From a virus, in the IMG/VR virus record IMGVR_UViG_3300036783_000164, positions 1-50,874 of that record: a DNA stretch of 50,874 bases; one strand, 5' to 3'. Made by a program: the position numbers and the translations under genes. The notes under the pieces are model-generated. The model saw nothing but the letters and a program-made list of their open reading frames with translations, was not told the DNA's origin and searched no databases. The first letter of the stretch is position 1; every line of letters starts with the position of its first letter. This document shows positions 1 through 50,874 of this stretch, one piece after another.

Positions 1-112
1 TGCTCAAGATGAATTCGAAGAACTAATAACTCAATTTAGAGAAAAAGACCCAGAAAAACAAAAAGAGATTATGAAATTATTTAAAGACTTAATGAAAATA
101 ACAGGCGATTGA
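1..112 (+). CDS. 3' end of the CI-like XRE repressor gene (duplicate copy of 50748-50859)
   Basis: Same reading frame and sequence as the end of ORF 50473..50859, ending ...KITGD then TGA at 110-112. Confidence 0.7.
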   Translation, partial: AQDEFEELITQFREKDPEKQKEIMKLFKDLMKITGD

Positions 113-127
113 TAGCTTTAGAAGCTA
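1..127. repeat. Terminal overlap identical to 50748-50874 (circular contig closure)
   Basis: The window starts tgctcaagatgaattcgaag. The same string restarts at 50748 and runs to the last base, an offset of 50747. Confidence 0.9.
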
Positions 128-148
128 CCGATCGCCTTTTTCATTTTT
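104..148 (+). terminator. Rho-independent terminator after the CI-like gene, overlapping the 3' end of the convergent small ORF
   Basis: Imperfect inverted repeat ggcgattgatagctt / aagctaccgatcgcc followed by tttttcattttt. Confidence 0.45.
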
Positions 149-267
149 AATATAATTTCAAGTGATTTTTCATCACCTTCGTGTGCCGCTTTCATAACCC
201 CTAATAATTGTGATTCGAATTCTGCTACCTCTGTTACTACCACGTCTTCTAAGTTCTCTTTTTTCAT
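118..267 (-). CDS. Small 49-aa ORF in the aimX position (downstream of aimP)
   Basis: Hand translation gives MKKENLEDVVVTEVAEFESQLLGVMKAAHEGDEKSLEIILKMKKAIGSF. A GGGGG Shine-Dalgarno lies 8 nt upstream. The ORF is below the 60-aa track cutoff. Confidence 0.4.
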   Translation of the reverse strand: MKKENLEDVVVTEVAEFESQLLGVMKAAHEGDEKSLEIILKMKKAIGSF

Positions 268-299
268 CCCTAAAACCCCCATTTTTTATTTATGTAATT

Positions 300-315
300 T
301 GTGAATCGATTCACA
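300..315. promoter_or_regulatory. Perfect 16-bp palindrome TGTGAATCGATTCACA (operator-like)
   Basis: Read directly. It lies between the aimP end and the small ORF start and shares the GTGAA/TTCAC half-site with palindromes in the immunity region. Confidence 0.4.
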
Positions 316-338
316 ATGTTTTCTCGAATATAGAATTT

Positions 339-355
339 GATATTTAGGAAATATC
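339..355. promoter_or_regulatory. Palindrome GATATTT-agg-AAATATC
   Basis: Read directly: 7-bp arms with a 3-bp spacer, just upstream (minus sense) of a TATATT -10-like hexamer. Confidence 0.3.
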
Positions 356-367
356 CCTAGAAACAGC

Positions 368-401
368 GAATGCGATTGCCTCTGTTGAGACAATCGCATT
401 C
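368..401. promoter_or_regulatory. 11-bp inverted repeat GAATGCGATTG-N12-CAATCGCATTC (candidate AimR operator or aimRP terminator hairpin)
   Basis: Perfect arms read directly, about 40 nt downstream of the aimP stop. No clear U-run follows on the minus strand. Confidence 0.35.
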
Positions 402-437
402 TTAATATTTATATTACAATCCTGATAAAATGGGATA

Positions 438-587
438 TTATCCCATTCCACCTCCGGGATCGACCATCATTCTATACGTATTTTCTTGAACAACCTTCGC
501 TGATTGCTCCTTTTGATCTTTAGCAGGAGATATGTATAGTACTCCAACTAGAGTCAATGTCGCTACAATAGCTAACACTTTTTTCAT
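438..587 (-). CDS. aimP: AimP-like arbitrium propeptide, 49 aa
   Basis: Hand translation gives MKKVLAIVATLTLVGVLYISPAKDQKEQSAKVVQENTYRMMVDPGGGMG. It has an N-terminal signal-like hydrophobic segment. Its ATG overlaps the aimR TGA (ATGA). Confidence 0.7.
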   Translation of the reverse strand: MKKVLAIVATLTLVGVLYISPAKDQKEQSAKVVQENTYRMMVDPGGGMG

Positions 588-1810
588 TTAGCATCACCCA
601 TATATATTATACCATTTTTATTAAAATCTACCAACATTTTTCTCGGTAATTTGCTGTAAAATCTGTTCCCTGCGCACTCGAAATCCACTATTGACTCTTC
701 TATCAATTTAATGTCTTTCAACGCATAACCTAAAATGCATTTTTTCATAGGACTTAACTTACCGTCTTTTCTTTCGCATTCCTTTAAAAGTTTAATCGCT
801 ACATCAGACTTTCCGATTAGCGCTTGGTAAAAAGCTTCTTCGCACACATTATAGATTTTAATTTCCTCTATCCCTTTATTACAGACAAGTTTAATAAACG
901 CGAAAGTATTTATAACACTTTCTTTTCTTTTTATCACTCTTTCAAAATGGCATGCGTCTAACATTTCTAACGATTTATTGATATACCAAGAAGCTCTTTC
1001 GTAACTTTCGAAAGTGTAAGACTCTGCAAGATATACTAAAGCTGATGCTCTTAAAAGAGAAAAACAATTTTTTTCGTCTTTTAAATTCATTATTTCATGA
1101 CACAACTCTCTGGATTTCTCGACGTTATCTTGCATTAAATAAGCGTAAGACAACCCTTCTTTAATTCTTCCTGAATATGCCGTTCTAATGAAATCATCTG
1201 GGATTTCTTCGACTTTTGGTTGCAATACTTCAGCATATTCAAACAATGAATTAAATTTTTCTAAATCATACATCGTATAGAAAGTTAGTATTCCATATAA
1301 CACTTTCATTTCTTGTGTCTTAATTACCTTACTTCTCTTACGGTCTTCTAATTTCTCTAATAATCCCTTACCACTAACGACACCCTTATTTCGCATCCAT
1401 ACCAATTCATATACATAAGCCCATTCTCTATTCATCGCCAACGAAGATGTTTTTTCTATATCTACAATCAACTTTAATAATTCTAAGTCACCAATTGCAT
1501 TGGCATATTCCATTGCAATTCGCATATTTTGTTTGCTCGTTGTAACTGAACAAAACTTATGTAGCATTTCTTTCTTTTTTAAAGCGTCGTCACCATACAA
1601 GATGTTAAGCAACTTAATCATATTCCAAAAATTAAATTGGCTCTTGCCTGACAAGTTTTTGGAAAACGATCCGCCTTTGATACCTAACTCCTTCGCAATA
1701 TCTTCTTGATTCCTTCTTTGAAAATCAATTCCATCAATAAGTTTGTTCAAAAATCCCCTTAATGCTTTCTTTTTCAATTCCTCTTGTTTTTGTTTAAGTG
1801 TCTGATCCAT
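584..1810 (-). CDS. aimR: AimR-like arbitrium receptor / HTH-TPR transcription regulator
   Basis: N-terminal HTH (EDIAKELGIKGGSFSKNLSG) followed by an all-helical TPR-like body. Segments recall phi3T AimR: AMEYANAIGDLE vs ALEYADANMFFE, and IKTQEMKVLYGILTFYTMYDLEKF vs IKTPEMNSFSRLLLLYHYLSTGNF. The ATG at 1810 is preceded by AAGGAG. Confidence 0.8.
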   Translation of the reverse strand: MDQTLKQKQEELKKKALRGFLNKLIDGIDFQRRNQEDIAKELGIKGGSFSKNLSGKSQFNFWNMIKLLNILYGDDALKKKEMLHKFCSVTTSKQNMRIAMEYANAIGDLELLKLIVDIEKTSSLAMNREWAYVYELVWMRNKGVVSGKGLLEKLEDRKRSKVIKTQEMKVLYGILTFYTMYDLEKFNSLFEYAEVLQPKVEEIPDDFIRTAYSGRIKEGLSYAYLMQDNVEKSRELCHEIMNLKDEKNCFSLLRASALVYLAESYTFESYERASWYINKSLEMLDACHFERVIKRKESVINTFAFIKLVCNKGIEEIKIYNVCEEAFYQALIGKSDVAIKLLKECERKDGKLSPMKKCILGYALKDIKLIEESIVDFECAGNRFYSKLPRKMLVDFNKNGIIYMGDAK

Positions 1811-1920
1811 CAAATTTGCTCCTTCTGGAACAAAGACGCTTCGCTCTTTCCCTCAAATTTTAAACAGGAAATTCATACCATAGTAATGCTTTAGTAATAT
1901 CGGCATGTTATAATGTAAGT

Positions 1921-2034
1921 GTTACTCGTGTAGTAACCGAAAAGAGACTTATGGCAGATGTTCCCCTTTGTGAGTCGGGCGAACGGTACAAGCAGTGCTC
2001 GCAACACTCTTGTACACGCTGTGAGTCTTTTTTT
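1921..2034 (+). ncRNA. Candidate small RNA (extended -10 promoter to T-run)
   Basis: TGtTATAAT at 1906-1914. A 5' hairpin GTTACT-cgtgt-AGTAAC (1921-1937). A hairpin at about 1986-2015. AAAAGAGACT (1940-1949) can pair with AGTCTTTTTT (2024-2033). T7 run at 2028-2034. No credible ORF. Confidence 0.3.
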
Positions 2035-2341
2035 CGTTCCGTTTATTTTAATGTTTTCATAATACCACATTTTTCCCAAAATTCAGTCGTGTAGTTATCA
2101 GACAATTGTTGAGAAAGTTGAGAAACCGCTTCAAATCAACGTTTCTAAGTGATGTAAAAATAAAATATGCAAATATGCATGGAACGTATAAAAGACTTCA
2201 CATGCATATATTACCATAAAATCGAACTTTTGTTCTATTTTTATTATATTTTTTAGTTGTTAAACGACTAAAATCGCCGTTTGGTTAATAAAACAACTTA
2301 TTGTAGTAGTATGATAGTTCAATATTTATACTTAAATTACT

Positions 2342-2686
2342 ATGATAATCTTTGGACAAACTTTAAAACAGTTAAGAAAGTCGCGTGATTTAACACAAGC
2401 AGAGTTAGCTGAAACTCTTAATTTAAGTCAGAGTCAAATTAAGAATTGGGAAACTGGTCGATTTCAACCGGATATTCAAACTTTAGCGAGTATCGCCTCC
2501 TTTTTCAATGTTTCTTTAGACGTCCTTGTAGGTTTCTCTAACAATTTCGAGGATGAACCAATACAACAAGTCATTTCTGAAGCTAGGTCAACGTATGGGG
2601 CGTTAGACGATGCTCAGAAAGAGCGCTTTTGTAATCAAGTGTTGTTGTTTATTCGAATGATTAAAGATAACCAAGAAACGTTCTGA
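2342..2686 (+). CDS. XRE-family HTH transcriptional regulator
   Basis: LKQLRKSRDLTQAELAETLNLSQSQIKNWETGRFQPDIQTLASIASFFNVSLDVLVG is a canonical HTH_3 pattern. No obvious SD. A TATACT hexamer 9 nt upstream suggests a possibly leaderless mRNA. Confidence 0.8.
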   Translation: MIIFGQTLKQLRKSRDLTQAELAETLNLSQSQIKNWETGRFQPDIQTLASIASFFNVSLDVLVGFSNNFEDEPIQQVISEARSTYGALDDAQKERFCNQVLLFIRMIKDNQETF

Positions 2687-2880
2687 TTTGATTTCATTGT
2701 AGAAGAAAAGTTTTCCAATGAATAGTGGTAAAATTTGACATAATTTGACCAATTGTGGTAAGAGGGCATATTGCTCTCTTTTTTTATTTTCATTCGACAA
2801 AATATGACAAAATAGTTGTAACTGGATTTGTTATGCTTAAATTGAAAATCTTACATTTTAGAAAGAAAGGATGCAATGTT

Positions 2881-6388: not shown

Positions 6389-6505
6389 GATAAAAAGATA
6401 CAAAGATAAAAAGATACATTTATCCTTAGATACAAAGATACATAGTTCTCCTTTGTGTATCTTTAGATACAAAGATAAAAAGATACAAAGATAAAAAGAT
6501 ACATC
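6389..6505. repeat. Array of AAGATACA / AAAGATAAAAAGATACA direct repeats with one inverted copy (centromere/iteron-like)
   Basis: Read directly: gataaaaagatacaaagataaaaagatacatttatccttagatacaaagataca...gtgtatctttagatacaaagataaaaagatacaaagataaaaagataca. Confidence 0.85.
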
Positions 6506-6707: not shown

Positions 6708-7655
6708 GTGAAAAAAGGATACGTAATAATCAACGCCCAACAAAAAGGTGGAGTTGGAAAAACAACTGATTCGTGTATGGAATCTCTTGTGGCTTCTTTA
6801 ATCTTTAATAAGAAAGTTTTATTTATTGATACTGATCTTCAAGGGAACGGTACAACGTTTTTAGCGAAATCATTTAATATTACCGAAATGCAAAAGACAT
6901 TAATGAAGTGTCTTGAAGATGGAGACTTGTCAGAAGGTATTGTGCAACTTCATAAAAATCTAGATATGATTCCATGCGGATATGATATGAGGAAATACAC
7001 TGACTTCTTAATCGAAACTTTCAACACGATTGAAGACAGAACTTTTTACCTTTCTAGACTACTAGAAAAAATCAAATATAACTACGACTACATATTCATT
7101 GATATCCCACCTTCAACAGATTTAAAAGTGGATAATGCTATGGTTGCCAGTGATTACATTATTGTTGTTCAAGAAACTCAACAATTTTCATATGAAGGAA
7201 GTCAACGTTTAATCTTTGAATACATCCAAACGTTAGTTGATGATTTCGGATCACTCGTAAAGATGCAAGTCGCTGGAGTACTTCCGGTATTACTACAACA
7301 AAAACGTGCTTTACACAAAGAAATTGTTAAAAGTACAATTGCTACTTTTGGTGAAGAAAACGTATTTACTACGATTATAAATAACCACGCCCGATTAGAA
7401 TGGTATCCACGAATTGGACTGCAATTTGAAGATCATCATGATAAGAGAATGCTAGCTTTATTCTGTGACATTTTCTGTGAGTTGGAAGAAAGAATTCACC
7501 TTTTCGAAATTGAGGGAGATATAGAAGCTGGATATAGATATACTCCAAAGTATTTAGTGGACAACAAGCTAACGAAATTAGGGAAGGGGATTGACATAAG
7601 TGGCTTTAATCAAAAGGGAAACACCGCAAGAACCGAAAATAGCACAATCTGCTAA
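6708..7655 (+). CDS. parA: ParA/Soj-family partition ATPase
   Basis: Deviant Walker A NAQQKGGVGKTT. GTG start preceded by AAAGGAG. The gene is flanked by repeat arrays. Confidence 0.85.
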   Translation: MKKGYVIINAQQKGGVGKTTDSCMESLVASLIFNKKVLFIDTDLQGNGTTFLAKSFNITEMQKTLMKCLEDGDLSEGIVQLHKNLDMIPCGYDMRKYTDFLIETFNTIEDRTFYLSRLLEKIKYNYDYIFIDIPPSTDLKVDNAMVASDYIIVVQETQQFSYEGSQRLIFEYIQTLVDDFGSLVKMQVAGVLPVLLQQKRALHKEIVKSTIATFGEENVFTTIINNHARLEWYPRIGLQFEDHHDKRMLALFCDIFCELEERIHLFEIEGDIEAGYRYTPKYLVDNKLTKLGKGIDISGFNQKGNTARTENSTIC

Positions 7656-7934: not shown

Positions 7935-7987
7935 TGTATCTTTGTATCTTTGTATCTTTGTATCTAAAGATACATGTATCTTTTTTT
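7935..7987. repeat. Inverted-orientation array TGTATCTT x4 plus palindrome TGTATCT-aa-AGATACA plus TGTATCTT
   Basis: Read directly: tgtatctttgtatctttgtatctttgtatctaaagatacatgtatcttttttt. It is the reverse complement of the repeat unit upstream of parA. Confidence 0.85.
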
Positions 7988-41126: not shown

Positions 41127-41624
41127 TTAGTATCCGTTCGCTATTCGATCATAGTTAACCTGATTCTTATCAAAGTAAGACTTTTCCATGTCTTCATATG
41201 ACATACCTAACTTCATTCCGATTGCTATTAAGGATGCAAATACACAATAATAACTAGCATGGGTATCAAGTGAATTTTCACGAATTTTATCGAATAGTTC
41301 ATAATAAGTTTTATTAGCTTGTCTTCCTACATAATTTACCCAAAAAGCATTGTGAGGAAGGTCATGACTAAACCCGTATTCGTTACCTATACTTGCTATG
41401 AAATGAATACAATCTGCCCATTCATCATGTTGTTTTTCCTTATTGTTACGCTTATTCTTCTTCCAGTATTTGAAGTATTCTATTTCATTTGCTAGTTCAC
41501 TTACTTCCACATAAAAAGCATGTGTTACGTCTCCAGTTAGGTTTTGTCCTTCTAATCCATGAACCTCAACAACCTTACGATCAAACTTGTCCTGTGCTTC
41601 AAAAATCTTTTGTATGTTCAACAT
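41127..41624 (-). CDS. All-alpha NTP pyrophosphohydrolase (dimeric dUTPase-like)
   Basis: FEAQDKFDRKV...YVEVSELANEIEYFKYWKK...DEWADCIHFIASIG resembles the dUTPase_2/MazG-like fold signature (from memory). Confidence 0.55.
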   Translation of the reverse strand: MLNIQKIFEAQDKFDRKVVEVHGLEGQNLTGDVTHAFYVEVSELANEIEYFKYWKKNKRNNKEKQHDEWADCIHFIASIGNEYGFSHDLPHNAFWVNYVGRQANKTYYELFDKIRENSLDTHASYYCVFASLIAIGMKLGMSYEDMEKSYFDKNQVNYDRIANGY

Positions 41625-50048: not shown

Positions 50049-50069
50049 ATGTTCACGTTTCGTGAACAT
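50049..50069. promoter_or_regulatory. Palindrome ATGTTCACG-ttt-CGTGAACAT (operator-like) between the cro-like and ant genes
   Basis: Read directly. It shares the GTTCAC/GTGAAC half-sites with 50344-50360. Confidence 0.45.
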
Positions 50070-50098
50070 TTAGTTAAAAAATAATAGTTAACTTTTCG

Positions 50099-50299
50099 TT
50101 AACCTTCTACTAATTCGTCAACTGTAACATCATACAATTTAGATAGTAAACCCAATCTGTATATACTCGGTTGCCTCTTGCCAGACTCAAGTTGTGAATA
50201 AGCAGATTTTGTTGAGTACCCAAGATAATCGCCCACATAAGCCTGACTATAACCACGATTCTTGCGTAACGCTTTGGCTTTTTCTATATTTAATTTCAT
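50099..50299 (-). CDS. Cro-like XRE HTH regulator, first gene of the leftward early operon
   Basis: LRKNRGYSQAYVGDYLGYSTKSAYSQLESGKRQPSIYRLGLLSKLYDVTVDELV. The ATG at 50299 follows AAAGGTG. Confidence 0.8.
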   Translation of the reverse strand: MKLNIEKAKALRKNRGYSQAYVGDYLGYSTKSAYSQLESGKRQPSIYRLGLLSKLYDVTVDELVEG

Positions 50300-50330
50300 G
50301 TTTATCACCTTTGTTCGTTTCGTTAATTTG

Positions 50331-50360
50331 ATAATAACACGACGTTCACTATTTGTGAAC
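50331..50360 (-). promoter_or_regulatory. Leftward early promoter with overlapping operator
   Basis: On the minus strand, TTCACA (-35), a 17-nt spacer, then TGtTATTAT (extended -10). The palindrome GTTCAC-aaata-GTGAAC covers the -35 and the spacer. Confidence 0.5.
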
Positions 50361-50508: not shown

Positions 50509-50859
50509 ATGAATTACCAATTAATTAGCAAGAGGGTTAAAGAAATCAGGACTGAAATACTCAAAATGAGTCAATCTGAATTCATTAATGCACTTGGACT
50601 AAAAAGTAAATCAGCAGTTTCTATGTGGGAAAACGAAGAAATGGATAAATGCCCATCTAGAAAAACTTCTTTAGATATAGCAAAACTCGCAAATGTATCT
50701 GTAGCTTATGTATTAGGAGAATCTGATGAAAAGAATCCTATTACAAGTGCTCAAGATGAATTCGAAGAACTAATAACTCAATTTAGAGAAAAAGACCCAG
50801 AAAAACAAAAAGAGATTATGAAATTATTTAAAGACTTAATGAAAATAACAGGCGATTGA
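50509..50859 (+). CDS. CI-like XRE-family repressor (116 aa)
   Basis: IRTEILKMSQSEFINALGLKSKSAVSMWENEE. Divergent from the cro-like gene. Start moved to the ATG at 50509, after AAGGGGAG. Confidence 0.75.
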   Translation: MNYQLISKRVKEIRTEILKMSQSEFINALGLKSKSAVSMWENEEMDKCPSRKTSLDIAKLANVSVAYVLGESDEKNPITSAQDEFEELITQFREKDPEKQKEIMKLFKDLMKITGD

Positions 50860-50874
50860 TAGCTTTAGAAGCTA
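50748..50874. repeat. Terminal overlap identical to 1-127
   Basis: See the feature at 1-127. Confidence 0.9.

Follow-up and report, generated by a model that had tools for sequence, protein, structure and literature searches.

The window analysed here is the whole stretch of 50,874 nucleotides of the IMG/VR virus record IMGVR_UViG_3300036783_000164. It is circular (approximately 50.7 kb), and its first 127 bases are the same as its last 127 (terminal overlap). At the locus the receptor gene aimR is followed by aimP and aimX, which face a repressor gene, aimC, followed in turn by the divergent cro-like gene aimL. As the window is circularly permuted, 5 bp separate the end of aimC (50510..50859) from aimX, and the final codons of aimC are found again at 1..112. 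The genes and the non-coding features around them are as follows.

50099..50308, minus strand: aimL, small cro-like HTH protein of 66-69 aa, likely start ATG at 50299, divergent from aimC
50344..50360, no strand: palindrome GTTCACTATTTGTGAAC between aimL and aimC, candidate AimC operator at the aimL promoter
50510..50859, plus strand: aimC, short repressor with an HTH, 116 aa when started at the ATG at 50510, convergent with aimX
100..140, no strand: bidirectional terminator-like hairpin (inverted repeat I1, arms 100-118 and 122-140)
118..282, minus strand: aimX, 54-aa ORF, 49 aa from the likely start ATG at 267 with a GGGGG ribosome-binding site
299..316, no strand: palindrome TTGTGAATCGATTCACAA just 5' of aimX, candidate AimR operator or shared regulator site
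358..401, minus strand: terminator-like hairpin 3' of aimP, 15-bp stem GAATGCGATTGTCTC / GAGGCAATCGCATTC with a 4-nt loop, then GCTGTTTCT
438..587, minus strand: aimP, 49 codons (49 aa), predicted secreted propeptide (ATGA overlap, phrog_2682, conservation, hydropathy)
584..1813, minus strand: aimR, 409 aa from TTG or 408 aa with the ATG at 1810 as start, peptide receptor inside the cell and transcription factor

A preliminary description of this DNA had placed the 408-aa gene and the 49-codon ORF at these positions on the minus strand, and both were found there, with the translation exactly as quoted. The receptor consists of an N-terminal HTH and TPR-like repeats, with 21 helices in a model calculated by AF2 using database homologs (pLDDT 90.6). 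It matched Pfam PF22871 (AimR) over residues 82-394 (E 1.5e-42, 146.3 bits, cutoff 26.7) and the NCBIfam equivalog NF038310 (lysogeny_AimR) over residues 27-394 (408.8 bits, cutoff 70), and none of the Rap, PlcR and NprR families of Pfam or NCBIfam matched it. A Foldseek search of the model against the PDB led to AimR chains for all of the best 16 matches (TM 0.65-0.78, one chain 0.58-0.67; E 6e-10 to 5e-7), from SPbeta, phi3T, Katmira33 and ATCC13952, compared to TM 0.34-0.5 and E 2e-3 or worse for Rap, PlcR and NprR. Therefore, from the Pfam match, the NCBIfam equivalog and the fold match to solved AimR structures, the receptor is AimR and not Rap, NprR or PlcR, in agreement with the family first proposed for it. 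The 'recognisable segments' that it had been said to share with AimR of phi3T and SPbeta were not recovered, as there was no pairwise or profile match (identity 17-20%) and the likeness exists at the level of family HMM and fold only; phmmer and a 10-sequence profile searched against the sequences of solved structures retrieved no AimR, which was found by the fold search alone. The 120 homologues listed of 126 found all belong to the B. cereus group and are mostly named AimR, the family already carrying the NCBI name 'AimR family lysis-lysogeny pheromone receptor'. AimR-encoding strains of this group have a mean of 2.8 AimR copies.

All RRNPP receptors have a TPR fold and, encoded next to them, a small propeptide that is secreted, and homologues of the window AimR exist on conjugative plasmids too (e.g. 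pAW63), with no aimX, aimC or aimL after them. The pair might thus be read as belonging to one of the other RRNPP families (Rap-Phr, PlcR-PapR or NprR-NprX) and regulating host or plasmid functions and not lysis-lysogeny. We regard this as very improbable, since AimR was the only family matched above cutoff, the AimR chains are clearly set apart from Rap, PlcR and NprR by TM score, and the full aimX/aimC/aimL context is present in the window.

The stop codon of aimR overlaps the start codon of aimP, as had been noted before: bases 584-587 read tcat on the plus strand and ATGA on the coding strand. AimP gave a full-length match to phrog_2682 (E 2.4e-18), and an equivalent ORF was present directly 3' of aimR on the same strand in 47 of the 47 related loci fetched, some of which encode an AimR only 48% identical. 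Judged by hydropathy, residues 1-22 form a predicted signal peptide, with a charged n-region (MKK), a hydrophobic core of 16 residues and, after it, SPA|K, and cleavage is predicted after SPA; for the AimP homologue of B83, cleavage has been predicted at residues 23-24 (PMC6669507). The C-terminal tail ..YRMMVDPGGGMG is the predicted site of the signalling peptide. Its sequence QENTYRMMVDPGGGMG was invariant over 10 protein clusters, while the N-terminus and the middle of AimP vary. Among members of the MMVDPGGGMG group, 21 of the codon differences in the final 16 codons were synonymous and 1 was non-synonymous, indicating that the tail is under purifying selection. Conservation of the small ORF and its C-terminus in homologous elements, on which the preliminary description had made its reading depend, was thus observed.

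Many ORFs of 30-60 codons arise by chance in the window, and no Pfam or NCBIfam model matches this one, as would be expected if it were a chance ORF in AT-rich DNA beside an orphan receptor. This is the least probable of the readings considered here and can practically be dismissed, given the phrog_2682 match, the presence in every locus including those with the 48% identical AimR, the bias of in-frame substitutions to synonymous ones and the ATGA translational coupling to aimR. From its position after aimR, the signal-peptide-like N-terminus, the conserved tail and the purifying selection, the 49-codon ORF is identified as a real aimP. It had been called unannotated, but homologous small ORFs do appear in public records, under the label 'hypothetical protein' and in one case as 'complement C1q protein'.

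The tail ending in ..DPGGGMG is, as described earlier, unlike the xxxRGA hexapeptides of the clade 2 phages SPbeta and phi3T, and the sequence does not reveal where it is cleaved. The variants of the tail track a hypervariable block of AimR, residues 296-380: between systems with MMVD- and MEVG-type peptides, AimR residues 81-295 are 97% identical, but residues 296-380 only 38%. For SPbeta AimR, the N-terminus of the peptide is reported to touch TPR7-9 (residues 296-366) and its C-terminus TPR5-6 (PMC6458997). Taken together, the divergence of this block and the SPbeta contacts fit a peptide whose N-terminal half varies while its PGGGMG half stays the same. The mature peptide probably takes in the variable residues before PGGGMG and would then be approximately 9-10 residues long, e.g. 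(M)MVDPGGGMG. The only isolated phages in the collection with an AimR of the window clade (81% identity) are PfNC7401 and PfIS075 (Cecivirus; plasmid pNC7401, emetic B. cereus). They have the same module layout and DNA 88.6% identical over window positions 890..2813, but the 3' third of aimR and the whole of aimP have diverged, with AimR residues 296-380 38% identical and a tail ..LYMEVGPGGGMG. Because of this divergence their signal specificity probably differs from that of the window system.

The third gene of the module, aimX, was absent from the preliminary description. AimX matched phrog_7267 (E 5.3e-22) and Waukesha92_35 (44% identity, E 3e-8), homologous small ORFs were present at the equivalent position in related loci, and a sequence search against the PDB gave noise only. 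AimC contains Pfam HTH_3 as its only domain and no autocleavage domain, and is 66% identical to AimC of Waukesha92. AimL (Pfam HTH_3, E 4.5e-14) is 50% identical to Waukesha92_33, and its gene heads an early lytic operon that continues with genes for an AntA antirepressor, YqaJ, RecT, DnaB and RusA. The earlier statement that the module lies beside a CI/Cro-type switch is thereby confirmed, and holds only across the circular junction with its 127-bp terminal repeat. A five-gene 'extended arbitrium' system, aimR-aimP-aimX/aimC/aimL, has been described by Kabel et al. 2025 (bioRxiv 10.1101/2025.11.23.689978). It is defined by an aimX of 29-80 aa in the same direction after aimP, a convergent aimC of 80-140 aa that encodes a short HTH repressor without autocleavage domain, and a divergent aimL that encodes a small HTH protein and stands at the head of early lytic and replication genes; the sizes, orientations and domains of the window genes agree with this definition in each case. 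Neither of the two features used for the SPbeta-like clade 2, namely an xxxRGA/xxxxGA hexapeptide and AimR sequence similarity, was found. By analogy to the system of Kabel et al., AimX is probably a small antirepressor protein.

Since aimX and aimC run towards each other, overlap at their 3' ends and have 5 bp between their stop codons, the output of the arbitrium system could also be mainly antisense: the aimX transcript would enter aimC and lower the repressor, with the small ORF being incidental. Such a sense-antisense arrangement is what had first been proposed for arbitrium outside clade 2 (cited in bioRxiv 10.1101/2021.09.20.460909). However, both stop codons lie within the hairpin 100..140, which is common to the two genes, was present in the predicted fold and has T-runs on both sides, as for a terminator on either strand between aimX and aimC. 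Moreover, the aimX ORF belongs to a conserved protein family (phrog_7267 and homologues), and mutants of the start codon and recoded alleles in related systems showed that the effector is the protein and not the RNA (bioRxiv 10.1101/2025.11.23.689978). We therefore consider a mainly antisense output unlikely and prefer AimX as a protein effector.

In the region 1..2400, the hairpin after aimP (inverted repeat 368-401) is the sole terminator-like site. Its arms are nearly invariant among 26 unique sequences of the window AimR clade, with one change of a base in the 5' arm and only A to G changes in the 3' arm, which leave G.U pairs in place in the sense RNA; at the equivalent place, other AimR clades carry a hairpin of unlike sequence. 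The palindrome 299..316 occurs once in the window, with 0.02 chance matches expected. Its TGTGA and TTCACAA parts are kept in all loci of the window clade, with one single-base exception (locus L011), and also in clades with an AimR only 25-27% identical, the spacer of TGTGA..TCACA differing by 1 bp across clades. A terminator hairpin and the palindrome TGTGAA-N3/4-TTCACAAAC 3' of aimP are thus common to B. cereus-group arbitrium systems with unlike peptides and AimRs 25-27% identical. The inverted repeat 368-401 and the palindrome 299-316 are the two candidate AimR sites. The hairpin arms as operator are weakened by the unlike hairpin sequences of other clades, as expected of a terminator. 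The palindrome in the window has the form TGTGA-N6-TCACA, which is also the Crp/Fnr-type consensus; reading it as a site for a host Fnr was set aside because most relatives have N5. The operator of SPbeta and phi3T consists of two inverted 6-bp boxes approximately 25 bp apart, and neither candidate resembles that layout within 283-437. The only long-range inverted repeat in this interval is the terminator hairpin itself, the outer hexamers of which are 22 bp apart, a spacing that is suggestive. Upstream of aimX, neither a sigma-A promoter consensus was called nor a LexA box as in phi106 found.

On the other side of aimC, the sequence GTTCAC-N5-GTGAAC of the candidate AimC operator has two exact matches in the window (0.02 expected), the second at 50051-50067, and weaker copies at 50087 and 50396. 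A conserved element of approximately 115 nt upstream of aimR, at about 1921-2035, is a non-coding RNA candidate; Rfam gave no match in the whole window, nor in 1780-2360 at E<=1, and no tRNAs were found.

Besides the module, the window encodes ParA, Replic_Relax and FtsK-like proteins, with 8-bp repeat arrays flanking the par genes, and a full siphovirus virion and lysis module (TerS, TerL, portal, capsid, tail, holin, amidase). No integrase or resolvase was found in 27 of the 29 ORFs of at least 150 aa (the other two being the tape-measure gene and the ORF 41127..41624), in line with the apparent lack of an integrase described before. From this gene content and the terminal overlap, the element is identified as a phage-plasmid of the B. 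cereus group, predicted to be kept as an extrachromosomal prophage.

The analysis established the identities of the genes, the layout of the module, the families to which its parts belong, their conservation and the selection that acts on the tail of AimP. It is highly likely that a complete lysis-lysogeny module of the extended arbitrium type is present at the locus, carried by a circular phage-plasmid of the B. cereus group, and that it works as follows. By analogy to published relatives, from which secretion and processing, peptide binding, activation of aimX by AimR and antagonism of AimC by AimX are taken, the 49-aa AimP precursor would be exported by Sec, cut after approximately residue 22 and then shortened extracellularly to the C-terminal peptide, which would be taken back in by an oligopeptide permease. 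Peptide-free AimR most likely activates a promoter 3' of the aimP terminator, leading to AimX. AimX would then bind AimC and block its oligomerisation on operators at the aimL promoter, turning on the early lytic operon and leading to lysis. As AimP builds up, AimR would be locked in a form unable to bind DNA and aimX would fall silent, allowing AimC to repress aimL, so that the plasmid prophage state would be set up or kept. [quoted passage not shown] As AimR of Waukesha92 is just 27% identical to that of the window, experiments with its AimR clade can be transferred by analogy only.

The Waukesha92-like phage-plasmid shares with the window the order and orientations of the five genes, the plasmid-prophage lifestyle, the approximately 115-nt non-coding element upstream of aimR and the TGTGAA..TTCACA palindrome before aimX, along with the related AimC, AimL and AimX. 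Apart from the AimR sequence, it differs by its tail (..MMSEPGGGGW instead of ..MMVDPGGGMG) and by a gap between aimR and aimP, where aimP of the window overlaps the aimR stop codon. The phage-plasmids vB_BtS_B83 (PMC6669507) and RBClin15 (PMC11526630) are likewise B. cereus-group plasmid-prophages in which AimR/AimP are flanked by CI-like and Cro-like regulators. The tails of their AimPs, ..YYMADPGGSVG and ..QRMMVDPGGGGW, have the DPGG core in common with the window, but their AimRs belong to other clades and are at most 30% identical to the window AimR. SPbeta and phi3T (Erez 2017; PMC6458997) are alike in receptor fold (TM ~0.75) and, as assumed by analogy for the window, in the logic that peptide-free AimR activates aimX and the peptide releases AimR from DNA. 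In contrast, AimX acts in them as an RNA or as a MazE-like antitoxin and not by antagonising a repressor encoded convergently.

The module type, its architecture and the plasmid-prophage context are thus already published and named, the arrangement having been reported for the B. cereus-group phage-plasmids B83 (PMC6669507), RBClin15 (PMC11526630) and a Waukesha92-like one (bioRxiv 10.1101/2025.11.23.689978), and the window module is an ordinary further member. As family, architecture and context were known, no long-standing question is opened. The gain lies in naming aimP, aimX, aimC and aimL, for which related public records say 'hypothetical' or give generic HTH regulators. In addition, the AimR block 296-380 co-varying with the peptide, the two well-conserved candidate AimR operator sites and the conserved non-coding RNA candidate adjoining aimR are leads for arbitrium outside clade 2. 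A speculative and rather doubtful extension is that the palindrome is the AimR operator. Co-resident arbitrium elements would then be insulated by peptide but cross-wired at the DNA level, and any peptide-free AimR could turn on aimX of a neighbouring prophage or plasmid. A second part of this extension, separate from the first, is that the AimR block 296-380, which swaps along with the four residues that precede PGGGMG, would be a portable specificity cassette and would define a mature peptide of approximately 10 residues.

The receptor encoded beside the small open reading frame is an AimR, as the preliminary description had proposed, and the module to which it belongs is a five-gene extended arbitrium, larger than aimR-aimP. 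The features concerned are:

1813 to 584, minus strand: aimR, with 409 aa if it starts at TTG and 408 aa if at the ATG of 1810
587 to 438, minus strand: aimP, a 49-codon ORF whose ATG overlaps the aimR TGA as ATGA
299-316: palindrome TGTGA-N5/6-TTCACAA, unique in the window, ~30 nt before the aimX start
118-282, minus strand: aimX, a small ORF of family phrog_7267, 3' of the non-coding cassette after aimP, with its start probably at the ATG at 267
50510-50859, opposite strand to aimX: aimC, 116 aa with an HTH domain only, its end lying five bp beyond the aimX stop
50099-50308, divergent from aimC: aimL, an HTH gene of 66-69 aa

A Pfam scan of the receptor matched AimR (PF22871, E 1.5e-42), and matches to the NCBIfam equivalog 'AimR family lysis-lysogeny pheromone receptor' (408.8 bits, cutoff 70) and to phrog_1728 (E 2.5e-130) were also obtained. 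Among solved structures, no AimR was recovered by pairwise or profile sequence searches. AlphaFold2 modelling on 27 homologs (pLDDT 90.6, pTM 0.87) was followed by a fold comparison with the PDB, in which the best 16 matches were all AimR, from SPbeta, phi3T, Katmira33 and ATCC13952 (E 6e-10 to 5e-7; TM 0.65-0.78 except for one chain; 17-20% identity). Rap, PlcR and NprR appeared later in the list (E 2e-3 or worse, TM 0.34-0.5); from the profile and fold matches together, the receptor therefore does not group with another RRNPP family. In a large protein collection 126 AimR homologs were found, of which the best 120 all belong to the B. cereus group; among the matches listed, most already carry the NCBI AimR-family name.

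Translation of the 49-codon ORF gave the product quoted in the preliminary description, and the ATGA overlap was likewise as reported there. The ORF matched phrog_2682 end to end (E 2.4e-18), and its residues 1-22 comprise MKK and a hydrophobic core ending in SPA|K, as judged by hydropathy. In 47/47 related loci examined, aimR is directly followed by an equivalent ORF; the set extends to loci whose AimR is 48-58% identical and to three large plasmids, of which two are typed as conjugative. Across ten protein clusters QENTYRMMVDPGGGMG is invariant, while the N-terminus and middle vary, indels included, so that a lack of conservation of ORF or tail was not found. In this tail group, the DNA of the final 16 codons showed 21 synonymous changes vs a single non-synonymous one (R to K). 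Further tails within the clade are YRMMVDPGGGMG, YKMMVDPGGGMG, LYMEVGPGGGMG, LYSEMGPGGGMG, AKMTDPGGGIG, ARMGDPG(G/S)GMG and IML(R/K)MDPGTGMG. The small ORF is thus a real aimP. One AimP homolog (..RMMTDPGGGGW; 2423-2581 in locus L049, from plasmid p.BC006.2) is named 'complement C1q protein' in RefSeq, probably a misannotation arising from the glycine-rich tail.

Comparison of the receptor with that of the PfNC7401 type, whose AimP tail is MEVGPGGGMG, revealed 97% identity at residues 81-295, 38% at 296-380 and, rising again, 85% at the C-terminus; megablast identity to PfNC7401 ends at window position 890. Residues 296-380 are a localised hypervariable block that switches jointly with the four AimP residues before PGGGMG, resembling a specificity cassette that has recombined. 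In SPbeta AimR-AimP as solved by crystallography, the peptide N-terminus is held by TPR7-9 (M296, Q299, E300, N329, M333, D360, F362) and the C-terminal carboxylate by R228 in TPR6 (PMC6458997). By analogy, the constant PGGGMG half would meet the constant half of the receptor, and the variable 3-4-residue half the hypervariable block. Because this pattern of variability fits a signal including the residues just before PGGGMG, the mature peptide is probably ~9-10 residues long; the sequence itself does not reveal the cleavage site, in agreement with the preliminary description. As a candidate reading, the specificity block could be portable.

PfNC7401 and PfIS075 are the only isolated phages in the collection with an AimR of this clade (81% identity), every other isolated-phage AimR being 30% identical or less. 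A plasmid of B. cereus NC7401 is the PfNC7401 prophage, and a published arbitrium survey already includes this strain with three AimR-AimP pairs. The nearest database relatives reach 95% identity in AimR, among the matches listed, and 96% in AimP; the locus adds to an already known kind of system.

Positions 1-127 are identical to 50748-50874, an exact 127-bp terminal direct repeat. The window is therefore a circular or circularly permuted molecule of ~50.7 kb, opened arbitrarily inside aimC, and the genes at its right end physically neighbour those at the left. Pfam scans covered 27/29 ORFs of 150 aa or more and detected:

6708-7655: ParA; further plasmid-type genes, Replic_Relax and an FtsK/SpoIIIE ATPase
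Virion and lysis genes: both terminase subunits (small and large), portal, capsid, tail proteins, holin and a PlyG-type amidase

These 27 ORFs showed no domain of an integrase or resolvase, and this gene content therefore supports the earlier suggestion of a plasmid-state lysogen. [quoted passage not shown] Arrays of 8-bp repeats at 6389-6503 and 7935-7965 (AGATACAA / AGATAAAA; inverse form TGTATCTT) flank parA and a small downstream gene and are possibly partition or centromere sites.

Extended arbitrium has been described as five genes, aimR, aimP, aimX (small antirepressor, 29-80 aa), aimC (short repressor without autocleavage domain) and aimL (cro-like), in a layout counted in ~75% of 9,300 AimR systems; AimX over-expression in a Waukesha92-like phage-plasmid lysogen raised phage titre 100-fold, and the earlier antisense-RNA model was judged largely inconsequential (Kabel et al., bioRxiv 10.1101/2025.11.23.689978). 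In the window, aimX and aimC share a bidirectional terminator-like hairpin, and aimL is followed by genes for an AntA antirepressor, YqaJ exonuclease, RecT, replisome organiser, DnaB and RusA (Pfam). AimC, AimX and AimL share 66%, 44% (E 3e-8) and 50% identity with their Waukesha92 counterparts, whereas AimR is only 27% identical and, with AimP, comes from another clade. Such a mosaic implies that the sensing half and the executing half of the module have undergone exchange. In operation, peptide-free AimR would turn on aimX, AimX would block oligomerisation and DNA binding of AimC, and the aimL operon would fire, leading to lysis. AimP would be secreted, processed and re-imported, and its accumulation would inactivate AimR and silence aimX, leaving AimC to hold the prophage. 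The palindrome GTTCAC-N5-GTGAAC has two exact copies, at 50344 and 50051 (0.02 expected by chance), and both are candidate AimC operators.

Two further features lie beyond aimR:

1907-2035, plus strand: small RNA candidate, conserved and unannotated, in the interval from aimR to the HTH gene at 2342
2342-2686: second HTH regulator gene, named 'prorepressor' in PfNC7401

The elements of the RNA candidate are an extended -10 that does not vary (TGTTATAAT), a first hairpin, two hairpins enclosed by a long closing stem, and a U7 tail; its MFE is -43.3 kcal/mol (z -3.2). Among 11 sequences, 5 of 46 predicted pairs carried compensatory double changes; wobble pairing is consistent with the plus strand only, and a 1-nt indel argues against a coding role. 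No Rfam match was obtained. The element adjoins aimR in Waukesha92, phiS58, BMBtp3, TP21T, Athena, PfNC7401, PfIS075 and CUBc25. A LexA-box-like CGAACTTTTGTTCT (2223-2236; one mismatch to CGAAC-N4-GTTCG) is located ~105 nt upstream of the second regulator gene; none was found near aimX.

The cassette after aimP (283-437) was compared in 26 unique sequences of this AimR clade. It starts with a 15-bp-stem hairpin followed by GCTGTTTCT, the sole terminator-like site in 1-2400, with arms that are nearly invariant (the first base differs in one locus) and 3'-arm changes that are A to G only, keeping G.U pairs in the sense RNA. Second is GATATTT-CCT-AAATATC, a short inverted repeat, and third the palindrome, which takes the form TGTGA-N6-TCACA in the window. 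From these sequence patterns, the hairpin is read as the putative aimRP terminator and the palindrome as a likely part of the aimX control region; both are unlike the SPbeta/phi3T operator (two 6-bp boxes 25 bp apart). Upstream of aimX no promoter matching the consensus was called, which would fit an activator-dependent promoter. The cassette of aimR, aimP, hairpin and palindrome is also carried by the large plasmids pAW63, pFORC47_2 and pKK3. In the conjugative pAW63 and pFORC47_2 no aimX ORF follows it, and in pKK3, a plasmid typed as non-mobilizable, the gene directly upstream of aimR encodes a peptide ABC transporter substrate-binding protein. In Waukesha92, CUBc25 and an RBClin15-like plasmid, with AimR only 25-27% identical, the hairpin has the same place and a different sequence, and the palindrome, (A/T)TGTGAA-N3/4-TTCACAAAC, recurs near letter-for-letter. 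If true, a cis element common to clades could allow DNA-level cross-talk between co-resident arbitrium systems.
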